Virus record (IMG/VR): IMGVR_UViG_3300028048_000060
Location: 32,001 to 96,000 of that record
DNA from: a virus
Lineage: Duplodnaviria; Caudoviricetes
Strand: one strand, 5' to 3'
Length of the DNA stretch: 64,000 bases
Shown here in pieces: positions 6,164-27,414 of the stretch; the first letter of the stretch is position 1; each line of letters begins with the position of its first letter. A program made the translations under genes and the position numbers. The notes below the pieces were generated by a model, which worked only from the letters and a program-made list of their open reading frames with translations, did not search any database and was not told where the DNA came from.

Positions 6164-6763
6164 ATGACAAACAGAATAACAAAATTAAAAAATGCTCTAG
6201 GAATTGGAGCAAGAAGTAACAGGTTCAGAGTTTACATCACCTTCCCACAGGGATTAGACCTTAGTTCAACAGGATTAAGTGAAACCTGTGATATTCTGTG
6301 TTCTAAGTGTGATGGCTTCCCTGAATTTGGTGCAGATGCTACGGAAGTCCATACCCAAGGAAGAAAATTGTTTATCCCTAAACAGGGTGACAATGGAGGA
6401 GACTGGACGGCTACATTCTATAACTCTGAGACTCACGACCTAAAGAGAGCATTTATTGCTTGGGCAAAGGCAGTTGACCATCCTATTTCAAACACTACAA
6501 CAGGAAGTCCTTCAGATGTTTCTGTTACTCTTAAAGTTGCTCAGTTAGACTCAGCAGAGAACGAGACTGTTGTTGGATGTTTCTATGAAGCATTTGTTAC
6601 TAAGGTAGCAGGACAGGACTTTGATGGCGGAAGTGCTCAGGATGTAGAAGAGTTCACTGTGACATGGAAGTATAGTTGGTTCAACTATGGTGAAGACTCA
6701 GAAAACATGAGACCTGAACAGTATACTCCTGCTACTAAGAATAAGACTGCTTATAACAACTAA
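6164..6763 (+). CDS. Tail tube protein, gp19-like
   Basis: GARSNRFRV, GRK...., WTATFY, VAQLD, VEEFTVTW.Y motifs. Confidence 0.8.
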   Translation: MTNRITKLKNALGIGARSNRFRVYITFPQGLDLSSTGLSETCDILCSKCDGFPEFGADATEVHTQGRKLFIPKQGDNGGDWTATFYNSETHDLKRAFIAWAKAVDHPISNTTTGSPSDVSVTLKVAQLDSAENETVVGCFYEAFVTKVAGQDFDGGSAQDVEEFTVTWKYSWFNYGEDSENMRPEQYTPATKNKTAYNN

Positions 6764-6774
6764 AGGACATAATA

Positions 6775-7314
6775 ATGGGGATTTTAGACTCTGTTAAGAA
6801 GATTGTAAAGAAAATAAATCCCTTTAGTAAAAAAGATGGAAAGGAAGTAATCAAAAGGCTTCTTGAAACTAAAATTGATATAAATAAAGAAATAAAAAAG
6901 AAGAATATCGATGATGGAACAATCCTTTTCTTTGAGTATGAAGCAAAGGACCAAACAATGATATTCGACCAGAAGCCTTTGATTATTGTTTTCGGAATAT
7001 CAAATGGATATGTCTTAGGACTCAATTTCCACTGGATTCCAATGAAAGCAAGAAAGACTTTAATTGAATATATTATTAAAATAAATATAAAAAACAATTC
7101 CATTAAAGTCCCTTTGGAATTTAAATATAAGGATTTTAAGAAAATGCTTAAAATTCCTGATTTTAGATTAGCAACAAGGATTTATATCAGAAACAGGATG
7201 TCTAAGAATGGAGTTATCATAGACCCCAAATATCTCCTAGACATAGCACAACTTAGTATTGAGCACTTTTCTGATAAAATTGACATTGATAGAATTGTTA
7301 AGGATTTGAAATGA
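6775..7314 (+). CDS. DNA end protector, gp2-like
   Basis: FF.Y.AK...FD..PL and GLNFHWIP motifs. Confidence 0.8.
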   Translation: MGILDSVKKIVKKINPFSKKDGKEVIKRLLETKIDINKEIKKKNIDDGTILFFEYEAKDQTMIFDQKPLIIVFGISNGYVLGLNFHWIPMKARKTLIEYIIKINIKNNSIKVPLEFKYKDFKKMLKIPDFRLATRIYIRNRMSKNGVIIDPKYLLDIAQLSIEHFSDKIDIDRIVKDLK

Positions 7315-8462
7315 ATACCAAACAGTTAAAAAGTGTGTTGACCAATCCTGATATTTTTGCCAAAGCTCTTAATGAAGACTTGGAAAACGCACTTAAAAAT
7401 TCAAATATCATCAAAGGAGAAATAATGATGGCAAAACGCTATGGTAGAGTTAACACTCTTTCAAAGTATATTAAGAACTTAATCAACGAAGCAGAAGAAG
7501 TTGAAGTAACCGATAACGAAATCGAAGGTTCAACTGATGATGTAACTGAGTCTTTCCGTAAGGTTCGTAGAGCACTTAAGGAAGCAGAAGATGCATTAGA
7601 AGTAGCAGAAGAAGAAGGTCAGGATGTTTCTGATATTCAGGATGCTATTGACGATGCTCAGGATGCAGTTGCTGAAGGTGATGAAGAAGAAGTAGTAGAA
7701 TCTTTAAAGAAAATCTATAAGAAGTTAAAGGAAGCAGAAGAAGTCCTTGACAATACTGATGTAGATGAAGACGAAGAAGAAATCGTTGAATCTTTAAAGA
7801 AGGTTTCACGCAAGCTTTCTAAGGCTAAGAGAATTGTTGAAGAAACTGAAATCACTGACCCTGAAGATGGTGGTTCTGAAGGTGTTCAGGGTATTGTTGA
7901 ATCTCGTTATCGTAGACTTAGAGGTCGAAAGAACAGACTTTCAGAATCTCGTCGTTTAGCAAGACGTTCTCGTATGGTTGAATCTGAACCAGGAATCCCT
8001 GACGAAGCAGATGAAATCGAAGGAAGTACTGATGATGTAACTGAATCCTTTAAGAGAATTAAACGTGCTCTTAAAGAAGCAGAAGATGAAATCGCTGATG
8101 TAGATGTTCAGGAAGATGATGCTGAAGAAATTCAGGAGTCATTCAAGAAAGCATTGAGAAAGACTTCCAAGGCTCTGAGACTCATGGAAGAAACTGAAGA
8201 TGCAGAAGATATCCAGGATGAAGTTTCTGAATCTTTAAAGCGTGCTAAGAAGTTAGTCGAAGATGCGGAAAACCAGGATGTAGATGAAGACGATGCAGAA
8301 GAAATCCAGGAAGCATGTCGTAAGTTTGCTCGTAACATCAAACGCGCTCGTAAACTTGTAGAAGATGCTGAAAATACTGACACTTGTGACGAAGAAGATG
8401 AAGATGATGGAACTGAAGAAGTTTCTGAAAACTTCAAGAGACGCATTCGTAGAAGTATCTAA
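7311..8462 (+). CDS. Acidic, repetitive prohead core protein
   Basis: Alternating acidic and basic blocks separated by many (L/I/V)-x-E-(S/A) sites; upstream of protease; alternative start with strong RBS at 7425. Confidence 0.6.
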   Translation: MNTKQLKSVLTNPDIFAKALNEDLENALKNSNIIKGEIMMAKRYGRVNTLSKYIKNLINEAEEVEVTDNEIEGSTDDVTESFRKVRRALKEAEDALEVAEEEGQDVSDIQDAIDDAQDAVAEGDEEEVVESLKKIYKKLKEAEEVLDNTDVDEDEEEIVESLKKVSRKLSKAKRIVEETEITDPEDGGSEGVQGIVESRYRRLRGRKNRLSESRRLARRSRMVESEPGIPDEADEIEGSTDDVTESFKRIKRALKEAEDEIADVDVQEDDAEEIQESFKKALRKTSKALRLMEETEDAEDIQDEVSESLKRAKKLVEDAENQDVDEDDAEEIQEACRKFARNIKRARKLVEDAENTDTCDEEDEDDGTEEVSENFKRRIRRSI

Positions 8463-8472
8463 GTAATCTTAG

Positions 8473-8505
8473 AAGAAAGACTGGGATTCGTTCCAGTCTT
8501 TTCTT
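8473..8505 (+). terminator. Intrinsic terminator
   Basis: aagactgg...ccagtctt stem followed by T-rich tail. Confidence 0.6.
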
Positions 8506-8521
8506 AAATATTAATTTCATT

Positions 8522-8635
8522 ATAGGTGAGGAACTCACCGAATTTAAGCATGTGGAGATTGAATTTCAATCTATGAAGCATGAAGCTATCACCCTTTAGG
8601 GTGATAGCAGTTCACATAAATACCTTAGAGATTAT
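8522..8635 (+). ncRNA. Orphan IS200/IS605/IS607-type right end / TnpB omega-RNA-like scaffold with putative guide
   Basis: Three hairpins (8525-8539, 8549-8582, 8585-8608), GAACT/AGTTC pseudoknot complementarity, terminal AGTTCAC; no tnpB in window. Confidence 0.65.
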
Positions 8636-8651
8636 ATAAGGAAACATTTAA

Positions 8652-9347
8652 ATGAGCGGAGCTAATTTAATATTTGAAATTGATGGTCAGAACTTAGACA
8701 TTGAGAGTGCTGAAATTCTCAATGAAGCAACTGGTCAGAAAGAAAAAACTTATAAACTCAAGGGTATCTTTTCTACAATCGGAGAGAAAAACCGAAACGG
8801 TCGAGTATATCCAAGAGAACTTTGGGAACGAGAAGTAAAAGCATATCAGACTGAAATTGAATCAGGCTCTATTAACACTTTGATGGAATTTGAACATCCT
8901 CCAAGAACTGAAGTTGATATGATGCAAGCAGTTGCTAAGATTAACAGACTCTATATCAAGGGAAACTTTGTGATGGGCGAGGCGGTTATTCTTAATAATG
9001 AAAAATCAAAACAACTAAAGTGCTTAATAGATAATGGAGTAAAGATCTCTGTTTCATCTCGAGGTGTTGGAACTGTTGAAAATGGCGTCGTAACAGACTT
9101 TAAGTTGATTACTTATGACATTGTTCCTAATCCAAGTGATTTTAATGCTACGATGAATGGTATCTGTGAGTCCCATGAAAATGGAATCCATGAGATGTAC
9201 CAGTTAAATGAAGGCATTCTCCAGGGTAAGACTTTTGGAATTGACAAAGCAGGAAACATTATTCCTCAGTTAACAGAGTCAGTTTCCAAGGAAGAATTAA
9301 AAGCAAGTCTTAAAAAAGCATTATGTTCTTTAATAAGTGAGATGTAA
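8652..9347 (+). CDS. Prohead core protease, gp21-like
   Basis: NRNGRVYP, EFEHP, VSSRGVG, YDIV..PS motifs. Confidence 0.95.
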   Translation: MSGANLIFEIDGQNLDIESAEILNEATGQKEKTYKLKGIFSTIGEKNRNGRVYPRELWEREVKAYQTEIESGSINTLMEFEHPPRTEVDMMQAVAKINRLYIKGNFVMGEAVILNNEKSKQLKCLIDNGVKISVSSRGVGTVENGVVTDFKLITYDIVPNPSDFNATMNGICESHENGIHEMYQLNEGILQGKTFGIDKAGNIIPQLTESVSKEELKASLKKALCSLISEM

Positions 9348-12177: not shown

Positions 12178-13896
12178 ATGATAAACGAAGAATATCTAAA
12201 CACTCCCTCACGTAAACTTCCCAAAGATAAACGCTCGTTCAACGAGTTTATATACACTGAAGTCTTTAAACAGAATGATATCTCATTGTCTGATTTTCTT
12301 TATAAAGTAAGCACCTTATGGAAGACTGAGAAGTTTAACTGTTTTCTAAAATACATTCAAACAGTTGAAGATTTAGAGTATAAGAACACTGACTTTAGAT
12401 TTGTAAGTGCGTATTATCGTAAGTGCCTTTATATCTGCCCAGGTTGTGGAAAAGAATCACTCACAAGGTATTGTAGTCAGAAGTGTTCTAATGTAGACCC
12501 TGAAGTTAAGAAAAAGAAAGCACAGACATCACTAAAACACTTTGGAGTTCCTAATCCAGGTCAGTCTGAACAAGTAAGGGAGAAAATTAAAGAAACATCA
12601 ATAAAACACTTTGGGGTTCAGTGTTCGTTTCAAGCAGAGTCTGTTAAAAATAAAATGAAGGAAACGAGTCTTCGAAAGTTCGGTGTAGAACATCCTATGA
12701 AGTCGGATATCGTTAAAGAGCATCAAAAAGAATCTATAAGAGAACGATTAGGTGTAGATTATCCTATGCATTCTAAGGAGGTTCGTGAAAAATCGAAGAA
12801 GACTTGTTTAGGAAAATACGGAGAAGAGAATGTCGCTAAGTCAGATTACTTTAAAGAAAAGCTATTTAATACTAACTTTAATAAGCATCACAAGAATATT
12901 CAAGACTTTAACCATGAGTTTATAAGAGAGAACTTCATAGAAGACTGTAAGTTCAAGATTCAAGAGTTTGAGGATTACTTCGGGATAAACTCACGTGTAG
13001 TAGCTAATCGTTTTAAAAGAAAACTTGGAATCCTTGAGCAGAATAATGATAGTTATATAGACCAGGGATATTCAAAAGAAGAAAAGGAACTCTTCGAATG
13101 GATTCCAACAGAAAATAAAGTATGTAATATAAGGTCTATTATAAATCCGTTGGAATTGGATATGTATCTTCCTGATTATAAACTTGCGATAGAATATGAT
13201 GGTGCCTATTATCACTCAGAACAGTTTAAACCCGAAGGCTATCATATTTTTAAGACATCAGAGTGTGAGAAACATGGAATTCAGCTATTACACATCTTCG
13301 ATTTTGAAGATATCGAGATATGGAAGTCTATAATATCAGGAAAGTTAAAGAAGAATACTAAAATCTTTGCAAGAAAATGCACAGTAAAGGAATTATCCTT
13401 CAATGAAGCAAAAATGTTCTTAGAGGAAAATCACCTACAAGGTTCCTGTCCTTCAAAGTACAGATATGGATTATTCTATAACGGAGAATTAGTCCAAGTA
13501 ATGACGTTTGGAGTTCCTAGGTTTAATAAACGGTATGACTTCGAGTTATTAAGATTAGCTTCTAAGAAGTTTACCTCCGTAGTAGGTGGCGCGTCAAAAC
13601 TCTTGAAATTCTTTAGAGATTCTCACACTGGGTCTATTATATCCTATGCCAATCGAAGGTTCTCTTTAGGTGATGTTTATAGAAAACTAGGGTTTAGACA
13701 ACTCGGGATAACTAATGTAAACTATTTTTATGCAGGGCATAACGAGGTTCTTACTCGATACCAGTGTCAAAAACATAAACTCAAAGACCTTTTAGAGAAC
13801 TTTGACCCGTCTAAGACAGAGTCAGAGAATATGAGACTAAACGGATATTTTAAAGTCTTCGATTGTGGAAATCTTATATTCTCGCTAATAGCATAA
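12178..13896 (+). CDS. Free-standing homing endonuclease, Hef-like (PD-(D/E)xK/DUF559-type core)
   Basis: CPGCG..YCSQKC zinc ribbon, K.T.L.K(F/Y)GV repeats, ELDMYLP..KLAIEYDG.YYHS, IFARKC, VVGGASKLLK. Confidence 0.8.
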   Translation: MINEEYLNTPSRKLPKDKRSFNEFIYTEVFKQNDISLSDFLYKVSTLWKTEKFNCFLKYIQTVEDLEYKNTDFRFVSAYYRKCLYICPGCGKESLTRYCSQKCSNVDPEVKKKKAQTSLKHFGVPNPGQSEQVREKIKETSIKHFGVQCSFQAESVKNKMKETSLRKFGVEHPMKSDIVKEHQKESIRERLGVDYPMHSKEVREKSKKTCLGKYGEENVAKSDYFKEKLFNTNFNKHHKNIQDFNHEFIRENFIEDCKFKIQEFEDYFGINSRVVANRFKRKLGILEQNNDSYIDQGYSKEEKELFEWIPTENKVCNIRSIINPLELDMYLPDYKLAIEYDGAYYHSEQFKPEGYHIFKTSECEKHGIQLLHIFDFEDIEIWKSIISGKLKKNTKIFARKCTVKELSFNEAKMFLEENHLQGSCPSKYRYGLFYNGELVQVMTFGVPRFNKRYDFELLRLASKKFTSVVGGASKLLKFFRDSHTGSIISYANRRFSLGDVYRKLGFRQLGITNVNYFYAGHNEVLTRYQCQKHKLKDLLENFDPSKTESENMRLNGYFKVFDCGNLIFSLIA

Positions 13897-13924
13897 TAGT
13901 CTAGTAGCATAATCAAATAAATTT

Positions 13925-13952
13925 AAGCCCTTAGTTTTCTAAGGGCTTTTAT
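13925..13952 (+). terminator. Intrinsic terminator
   Basis: aagcccttag/ctaagggctt stem followed by T run. Confidence 0.75.
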
Positions 13953-14035
13953 TTTCTCTCAGAATATCTAAAATTTTTATTCTGTATCTTTATATAAAGA
14001 ACTAAGATTTAAACTTTAATGTCTTTAAAACATCT

Positions 14036-14086
14036 TTTGTCTTTAAACAAAAATCCTTTGAAGTTCTAAGATATATAAAATATAAT
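14036..14086 (+). promoter_or_regulatory. Early sigma70 promoter with degenerate palindromic box
   Basis: TTTGTCTTTAAACAAAA, then TTGAAG-N17-TATAAT. Confidence 0.6.
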
Positions 14087-26505: not shown

Positions 26506-27414
26506 ATGAAATTCAAACAAATCATCAACGAAGGTTCTGAGTCTAAGACAGAACTTCCTGAAAGAGTAAAGCCTAAGAACAACGAAGAGTTCAAGAAAAT
26601 GGTCAGAAACTACATTTCTGTATACAACAAACAGGTAGGGCCTACAGGAAACTTAAACTTCATCGACACGTCTGATATTACTGATATGAGTGGCCTTTTC
26701 GAAGACTGTGACAGGTTCTGGGGCGATATTTCTGAATGGGATACATCTAAAGTAACAGATATGCATAACATGTTCAACTGTTGTTCATTTAATGGTGATA
26801 TCTCTAAGTGGGATGTAAGCAATGTAAGAGATATGAGTTTAATGTTCGCATATGGCTCTTTTAATGGTGATATCTCTAAGTGGAATGTTTCTAAAGTAGA
26901 TAATATGGGTGGAATGTTTAAGAGAAGCAAATTTAATGGAGACCTGAGTCGGTGGAATGTGTCTAAAGTAACGAATATGCACCAGATGTTCCAGAAGTCC
27001 AAGTTTAATGGTGATATCTCCAAGTGGAATGTTTCTAGAGTGGAAAATATGGGCGGAATGTTCGAAGAATCAGCCTTTGCAGGTGATATCTCTAAGTGGG
27101 ATGTTTCTAATGTAGAGAATATGGCTTTTATGTTTAGGAGAAGTCCATTTAATGGAGACCTTAGTAAGTGGGATGTAAGTAATGTCACAAGCATGACCTA
27201 TATGTTTGAAAGATCTGCATTTACAGGCTCTAAGGGCGACATCACTAACTGGGATACTTCCAGTGTGACAGATGTATCCTGTATGTTTGCTTATACTAAG
27301 TTTAATCAGGATGTGTCAAATTGGGATGTATCTAAGGTAAAGGGAGATGATGCTTTGTGGGCCTTTGAAGGATGTCCATTAGAAGGTAAAATCACATTTA
27401 TGAGATTTAAGTGA
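26506..27414 (+). CDS. BspA/DUF285-type repeat protein
   Basis: About 9 units of ~24 aa, FNGDISKW(D/N)VS.V..M..MF. Confidence 0.9.
   Translation: MKFKQIINEGSESKTELPERVKPKNNEEFKKMVRNYISVYNKQVGPTGNLNFIDTSDITDMSGLFEDCDRFWGDISEWDTSKVTDMHNMFNCCSFNGDISKWDVSNVRDMSLMFAYGSFNGDISKWNVSKVDNMGGMFKRSKFNGDLSRWNVSKVTNMHQMFQKSKFNGDISKWNVSRVENMGGMFEESAFAGDISKWDVSNVENMAFMFRRSPFNGDLSKWDVSNVTSMTYMFERSAFTGSKGDITNWDTSSVTDVSCMFAYTKFNQDVSNWDVSKVKGDDALWAFEGCPLEGKITFMRFK

Follow-up and report, generated by a model that had tools for sequence, protein, structure and literature searches.

The stretch of DNA analysed here (the window, 64,000 nt) comprises bases 32001-96000 of a virus record of 154,736 bp with an estimated completeness of 68%. 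All positions below are in window numbering unless stated otherwise. The locus lies in a late module of the T4 type, in which the neighbouring genes encode the tail tube, the DNA end protector, the head protease, the scaffold, and the major capsid protein. The major capsid protein shares 62% identity with its counterpart in the Vibrio phage Va1 group and 47% with those of Campylobacter phages. The gene upstream of the gap is a phage structural gene. Its C-terminal part (8200-8462) carries repeated acidic segments (EDAEN...DEDDAEE...CRKF...RAR), which vary in number and length among relatives.

The 189-nt intergenic RNA folds into the hairpins listed in Table 1 (-58.8 kcal/mol, z = -6.06), and 0 of 200 shuffles were equally stable. 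A reading made from the letters alone (the sequence-only reading) had described hairpins, a CATG/CATG stem, and an AGTTCAC in this gap, and all of them were found where it had placed them. The hairpin at 8478-8506 has a strong predicted fold and a U-rich 3' side. From the T4 late-promoter consensus, we take the ATAAATA core upstream of the protease gene to be, very probably, the late promoter of this gene. The related sequence TATAAATA sits 19-24 nt 5' of the tail-tube and capsid gene starts.

Table 1. Coordinates of the features at the protease locus and of the tnpB genes in the same virus record.
Feature	Position	Strand	Remark
Native terminator-like hairpin of the upstream gene (7311-8462)	8478-8506	+	Outside the element; also in the element-free L018
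Inserted block, 108 nt, between CTTAA and ATAAATACC	8508-8615	+	Missing in L018 and other relatives
Left 15 nt of the insert, no source assigned, contains TTCAT (8516-8520)	8508-8522	+	Unstructured
Complete omega-RNA scaffold = IS200/IS605 right end, 93 nt	8523-8615	+	Match to CM R1
Stem 1 hairpin, GGTGAG-GAA-CTCACC	8525-8539	+	GAA loop (8531-8533) predicted to form a pseudoknot with UUC (8611-8613)
Long-range stem 2, CATG (8549-8552) / CATG (8579-8582)	8549-8553 with 8578-8582	+	Encloses the variable hairpin
Variable 7-bp hairpin, AGATTGA-ATT-TCAATCT	8556-8572	+	Inside stem 2
Terminal perfect stem, 9 bp plus a C-G pair closing a UUUA loop	8585-8608	+	Corresponds to the tetraloop stem adjoining the guide
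Right-end tip AGTTCAC, final scaffold bases 5' of the guide	8609-8615	+	Invariant in the aligned scaffolds
Would-be guide = native flank, starts ATAAATACC	8616-8635	+	Same sequence adjoins CTTAA in L018
Late-promoter core ATAAATA	8616-8622	+	About 30 nt 5' of the protease start codon (8652)
Prohead protease gene, outside the element	8652-9347	+	PHROG head maturation protease, E 1e-52
Six tnpB ORFs	L142:6218-7513; L144:17772-19010; L145:1036-2361, 6378-7691, 12765-14084; L146:8856-10106		
tnpB-C	genome 113571-114809	minus	Closest scaffold to the orphan

An inserted block upstream of the protease gene

We retrieved ten related loci through the protease protein, including L018, L019, L020, and L021-L025. 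In L018, a phage contig whose protease is 98% identical, CTTAA is followed directly by ATAAATACC, and exactly positions 8508-8615 (108 nt) are missing. The vacant allele reads AATAAATA. Owing to an ATA repeat, the boundaries of the insert are uncertain by up to 3 nt. The block is missing in L019, L020, and L021-L025 as well, and no copy was found at any of the ten related loci. Its presence and absence in near-identical genomes, with a clean junction, show that the block is a genuine insertion, as expected of a mobile element. The sequence-only reading had proposed that relatives be searched for empty sites, and had named conserved ordinary terminators as the case against it. The comparison yielded an empty site lacking exactly the 108 nt, and the hairpins of the block are missing at all related loci.

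The point of insertion had to be revised. It had been placed after TTCAT, with an empty site of TATAAATA; this assignment is wrong because TTCAT lies within the inserted block. A junction of TTCAT with ATAAATA is ruled out by L018 and L020, both of which have TAAATAAATA. The ATAAATA core is invariant in the four aligned sequences (window, L018, L019, and L020). The base 5' of it differs: L019 has T, L018 and L020 have A, and the window has C, the final base of the element. The would-be guide does start on the late-promoter core, as had been proposed, with ATAAATA conserved upstream of the protease. When up to 3 mismatches are allowed, the would-be guide occurs only once in the window. The bases 3' of the tip AGTTCAC are different at each locus of the family. 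That the guide matches its own flank is a property of every right end. L018 carries a perfect target of approximately 30 nt for this guide, adjoining CTTAA.

The inserted block encodes no protein partner nearby. No similarity to TnpB was found in any frame of the 1.8 kb upstream, and neither tnpB nor tnpA is present in the 64-kb window, in agreement with the sequence-only reading, which had also called the element orphan and non-autonomous. The 15 unstructured nucleotides 5' of the scaffold hold no left-end hairpin; in related IS605 elements, the left-end hairpin is of the same kind as the right-end hairpin. A promoter scan found no sigma-70-like promoter on the + strand of the locus. The hairpins of the block are followed by no U-tract, and no terminator was called there. 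Exact-pattern scans found no other copy, neither of the middle part in viral contigs nor of the terminal hairpin or the right junction in metagenome contigs.

Scaffold identity, covariation, and architecture

A covariance model (CM R1) was trained on 10 scaffolds physically linked to tnpB genes, with the window copy excluded. It matches 8523-8615 with 96.3 bits (E 1.4e-21, model positions 1-114 of 114, no non-canonical pair flagged), and this is the sole significant match in the 64-kb window. All 20 modelled pairs are canonical in the window copy. Because a model trained on other sequences matches this segment end to end, the pattern is far beyond chance. The resemblance to tnpB-linked scaffolds ends 2 nt 5' of position 8523. 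A weak match at 27048-27148 (15 bits) was rejected; it sits in a region coding for a repeat protein. The stretch 26980-27220 codes for tandem repeats of about 20-25 residues with GDISKWDVS-like motifs, as in a leucine-rich-repeat-like phage protein.

In the alignment of the 10 scaffolds, 96.5% of the cells in the family helices are paired, and both sides have changed in 12 of the 20 pairs. None of 500 shuffles was as good, and slid controls of the same alignment were 30-48% paired. Helix 1 is paired in 100% of the cells, and four of its six pairs covary. Helix 2 is 98% paired, and the region enclosed by stem 2 differs in length among family members. Helix 3 shows changes on both sides in seven of nine pairs. 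The second pair of helix 2 (alignment columns 28/116; A8550-U8581) is G-C in four of the tnpB-linked copies, C-G in three, U-A in two, and A-U in one. The change of CCTG/CAGG to CATG/CATG, regarded in the sequence-only reading as compensatory, is thus one state of a covarying pair. The proposed assignment to the TnpB omega-RNA type is upheld by the model match and by this covariation. Rfam itself gave no relevant match; a scan of 8300-8800 with E up to 10 returned chance matches only.

The motif GGAAC is conserved across the scaffold family. GAA in the loop of hairpin 1 is complementary to UUC in the right-end tip, and the two are placed as in the ISDra2 omega-RNA (PMC10097598). Both partners are invariant in the family, and for that reason covariation is uninformative on their pairing. 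A pseudoknot between them is plausible, since the architecture matches that of the solved ISDra2 omega-RNA. Of the AGTTC/GAACT pseudoknot in the sequence-only reading, the complementarity and the placement hold, and the pairing itself is a prediction.

The ISDra2 omega-RNA has G, U-U-C, and A at -6 to -2, a UUUA tetraloop at -20 to -17, and a pseudoknot that has been solved structurally (PMC10097598). The window has G-U-U-C-A at the same positions before the guide, and its UUC (-5 to -3) is complementary to a GAA close to the 5' end, in the orphan the hairpin 1 loop. Both RNAs have a UUUA-loop stem some 17-21 nt before the guide (-21 to -18 in the orphan). A long-range stem 2, a variable stem 3, and a guide taken from the DNA flanking the right end are further common features. 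Unlike the ISDra2 omega-RNA, the orphan overlaps no tnpB. Its scaffold has 93 nt compared with 116 nt, because the variable stem is short, and its vacant allele has CTTAA before the target in place of TTGAT.

In the 154.7-kb genome, four loci carry the strict 3' motif (GAAGC, stem, CTTTAG, stem, GTTCA): the window copy and three tnpB 3' ends. The motif was found at no fewer than 110 loci in IMG/VR. Among the IMG/VR matches listed, the motif mostly terminates TnpB ORFs of 360-470 aa, several of which adjoin a Y1 tnpA; on account of these neighbours, the scaffold class is IS200/IS605. A megablast search of phage records with the region gave no match. A distant search of phage records gave two leads, one in Thermus phage TMA and one at the 3' end of the Acidianus two-tailed virus 2 (ATV2) transposase gene. 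We regard it as practically certain that 8508-8615 is a genuine omega-RNA-type right end acquired by insertion.

The tnpB genes of the same genome

The 154.7-kb record contains six tnpB ORFs of 412-441 aa, all outside the window and at least 33 kb from the orphan scaffold. They fall into family A (four copies), family B (one), and family C (one). No Y1 or serine tnpA was found in the record, which is an estimated 68% complete. The search of the whole genome for tnpB and for further copies, suggested by the sequence-only reading, thus gave six genes and no second orphan scaffold; outside the orphan and the tnpB ends, the CM R1 matches in the record are of chance level only. The scaffold of the family C tnpB, which is part of the training set, scores 105.6 bits with CM R1, and the ends of the four family A tnpB genes score 13-33 bits. 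Window positions 8521-8580 share 85% identity (61 nt) with the family C tnpB at its 3' end, where GAAGC, stem, CTTTAG, stem, and AGTTCAC follow in the same order. The sequence of the terminal stem differs between the two scaffolds. The TnpBs closest to TnpB-C in the sample (46-49% identity) have the same type of hairpin 1 as the orphan.

TnpB-C contains the OrfB_IS605 and TNB domains. When aligned to solved TnpBs, it has the first and third RuvC aspartates (D in GIDLG and D in DRD) and a D-E pair at motif II, which aligns ambiguously. In families A and B, the three RuvC motifs were recognised by eye. On this comparison, all six TnpBs appear to keep RuvC-type acidic motifs. The tnpB-C gene sits behind a TATAAATA late promoter. 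Most of the six genes lie 20-40 nt 3' of a late promoter of the TATAAATA type and are flanked by phage genes, a placement resembling that of the free-standing homing endonuclease genes in T4.

The TAM of TnpB-C bears on any link with the orphan, whose vacant allele offers CTTAA before the target. No relative of the downstream neighbour of tnpB-C was found. In L141, a 68% relative with regard to the other neighbour, the two genes flanking tnpB-C abut. Reconstructions of the empty site from L141 that keep the reading frame of the neighbour end in TTCAT, ATTAA, or ATTAC. Relatives of TnpB-C insert after T-(A/T)-TAC, and upstream of tnpB-C an ATTAC is followed by a similar start of the left end. 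For these two reasons a TAM of the TTAC type, not fitting CTTAA, is the best-supported candidate for TnpB-C. The compatibility of CTTAA with TnpB-C accordingly leans toward the negative, as judged from these alignments.

Three further features were observed at the tnpB genes. The tnpB-C gene is flanked by a 13-nt direct repeat of its own right-end tip (L144:17755-17767 and L144:19045-19057), the left copy of which is directly 5' of the late promoter; this copy may derive from a former left end or an older scaffold. At L145:7728-7809, 3' of the tnpB at genome positions 121977-123290, the right-end tip and approximately 67 nt of the 5' end of the next gene are duplicated in tandem. The guide of this tnpB has two matches in its own genome because of the duplication, which has the appearance of a break-repair scar. 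A second, decayed right-end tip (L145:902-908) lies approximately 90 nt past the right end of the tnpB at genome positions 116635-117960. Its similarity to the end of a different family A copy suggests that insertion at one site happened more than once.

Remnant or guide in trans

What is known of the natural role of TnpB, the ancestor of Cas12, comes mainly from bacterial transposons. PATEs are protein-less IS200/IS605 elements, some of which encode omega-RNAs that need TnpB in trans (Meers et al., PMC10055086). The orphan is likewise without a protein gene, keeps an omega-RNA, and would need the TnpB of another element in trans. Whereas PATEs keep left-end and right-end hairpins, occur in several copies, and are movable by TnpA, the orphan is single-copy in a record without tnpA. 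Because it is without a left-end hairpin, it is neither a canonical PATE nor movable by TnpA. PATEs reside in a bacterial chromosome, the orphan in a T4-like phage of the virulent type. The orphan is a protein-less, omega-RNA-encoding IS200/IS605 derivative. Such elements are already known in bacteria; the phage setting is unusual and experimentally convenient.

We give a probability of roughly 0.5 to the reading of the orphan as a silent but guide-competent remnant. It is a solo right end of the IS200/IS605 type, made up of the 15 nt of no assigned source and the complete 93-nt scaffold. Placed between CTTAA and the ATAAATA core, it can by itself neither move nor cut. Most likely, it would be the leftover of a full element that lost its left end and tnpB, or a patch brought in by recombination. 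It retains all that a guide RNA requires. It would act only if late read-through transcripts were processed and loaded by a TnpB supplied in trans.

A silent remnant is consistent with the missing left-end hairpin, with the want of a sigma-70-like promoter on the + strand, and with the terminator-like hairpin directly upstream. No other copy was found, and phage contigs commonly contain right-end remnants of 35-190 nt with no protein gene. In a sample of phage contigs retrieved through the right-end motif, approximately 30% of the copies with at least 1.7 kb upstream are without tnpB. The lengths of the orphan remnants in phage contigs vary: many measure 35-72 nt, a further group 93-130 nt, and two 170-187 nt. 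The many of 35-72 nt weaken the notion that every orphan remnant is trimmed precisely to the scaffold. The CTTAA of the empty site, set against the T-(A/T)-TAC of the TnpB-C relatives, also favors a remnant. On the other side, the scaffold is complete to within 2 nt of its 5' end, which remnants of random deletion reach only sometimes. This completeness is suggestive but is not proof of selection, because remnant lengths vary. A TnpB of the same scaffold type, with acidic residues at the three RuvC positions and behind a late promoter, is encoded in the same genome, and a close relative carries the perfect 30-nt target. Orphan scaffolds driven by promoters in two other phages also speak against a mere remnant.

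The first of these is an unannotated orphan scaffold in Thermus phage TMA (L016:2994-3090; AP011617.1 84628-84724; 73.5 bits), where a TTGAAA-17-TATAAT promoter ends 8 nt before the scaffold. The only clear tnpB match in TMA (over Pfam's cut-off) lies 28 kb from the orphan, and its 3' end differs (15.6 bits). The second, L045:1747-1848 on the minus strand (90.6 bits), belongs to a 46-kb phage contig that is rated complete and has no clear tnpB. The TTGAAA-17-TATAAT promoters of the two scaffolds end 5-8 nt before them. It is conceivable that the L045 scaffold is a phage-borne guide for a host TnpB. As the TMA and L045 scaffolds have predicted promoters of their own, stand-alone guide genes do occur in phages.

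A possible but more tentative explanation is that the orphan works as a stand-alone guide that a TnpB uses in trans, either for homing or for marker exclusion. The scaffold might then be carried in late read-through RNA and be cut out by a TnpB of the phage, most likely TnpB-C, which would receive ATAAATACCTTAGAG as a second guide. The element-free allele of co-infecting relatives could, on this still tentative account, be cut at the protease promoter, and the break be repaired from the element-bearing genome. Such repair, if it occurs at all, might spread the 108-bp block together with the nearby head genes, as in T4 seg/mob. The scaffold itself is in a fit state for this use: it is complete and flawless, with an ISDra2-like architecture, and the closest scaffold of the genome is that of TnpB-C (85% over 61 nt; 105.6 compared with 96.3 bits), whose nearest relatives share the type of hairpin 1. 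An exact target adjoins CTTAA in L018, and other phages have orphan scaffolds driven by promoters. One of the three empty-site reconstructions for tnpB-C (ATTAA) would fit CTTAA. That PATE omega-RNAs need TnpB in trans is a precedent (PMC10055086), and a further report has TnpB cutting its own transcript into omega-RNA (PMC10278001). The orphan, however, has no promoter of its own and is preceded by a terminator-like hairpin. The better-supported target motif of TnpB-C is TTAC-like and not TTAA, and its terminal stem has another sequence. The orphan is also a single occurrence that is not conserved across phages.

The T4 seg and mob genes provide homing with marker exclusion. Like these genes, the orphan is intergenic between conserved late genes and polymorphic between close relatives, and a defective element of this kind could spread by means of a nuclease encoded elsewhere in the genome. 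It differs from them in that recognition would be by an RNA guide and not by a protein. In T4-like phages, the defunct I-TevIII trans-homes via MobE (PMC2790892). Among the modes given for these systems in a 2026 review is homing into co-infecting phages (PMC13565253). We consider a wider scheme possible but less likely than not, in which the tnpB genes of this virulent T4-like phage, which are without TnpA and under late promoters, are homing endonucleases, and the orphan is a free-standing extra guide for TnpB-C. The same applies to its extension, in which TnpB-C would attack the protease-promoter allele of competitors and drive the 108-bp module with the head genes, making up a two-guide gene drive in a virus.

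It is much less probable that the block is a drive-resistant allele. A full TnpB element would have homed to this site and a deletion would have kept its right end only. With similarly small likelihood, competitors bearing the element would be unable to cut this genome, which need not carry the 1.3-kb gene, because the target motif and the target are still kept apart by the right end. The insert does put 108 nt between CTTAA and the target, and short tnpB-less right-end remnants are frequent in phage contigs. However, any internal deletion would give equal immunity, and the retention of the whole scaffold is left unexplained. No phage was found with a full element at the protease site.

Least probable of all, and largely refuted, is that these are ordinary regulatory hairpins of the protease gene (a terminator, an attenuator, or an RNA-stability element), or the guide of a TldR repressing the late promoter: the position between terminator and promoter and the overlap of the flank with the promoter core fit such a role, but the hairpins are missing at all ten related loci, including the relative with the 98% identical protease, have no U-tract after them, and match a TnpB scaffold model with 96 bits. 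TldR is a phage-encoded, nuclease-dead TnpB repressor with a guide RNA (PMC10705468). The likeness consists in a guide of the TnpB family in a phage genome with a complementary site that overlaps a promoter. In contrast to TldR, the promoter overlap follows from the insertion site and not from retargeting of the guide, and the guide-flank match is trivial, being true of every right end. The sequence-only reading had considered a TldR partner. Nothing points to one, because the six TnpBs of the record keep RuvC-type acidic motifs (family C by alignment, A and B by eye) and no nuclease-dead TnpB is present among them.

Both alleles of the site are in hand, the filled one in the window and the empty one in a near-identical phage, together with a candidate nuclease in the same genome. 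RNA-guided homing during co-infection and the use of a guide in trans are therefore directly testable. If the orphan is silent, as the preferred reading of a remnant has it, the block is a clean, dated footprint, in which an element of the IS605 type entered a promoter-proximal site of a lytic phage and decayed to a guide-only remnant.

Protein-less elements that form one family were observed around the motif match in six other contigs (L040, L081, L083, L105, L116, and L122). They are approximately 160 nt long and have the same hairpin and AGTTCAC tip. They look like a multi-copy non-autonomous element, because their contigs and right flanks differ.
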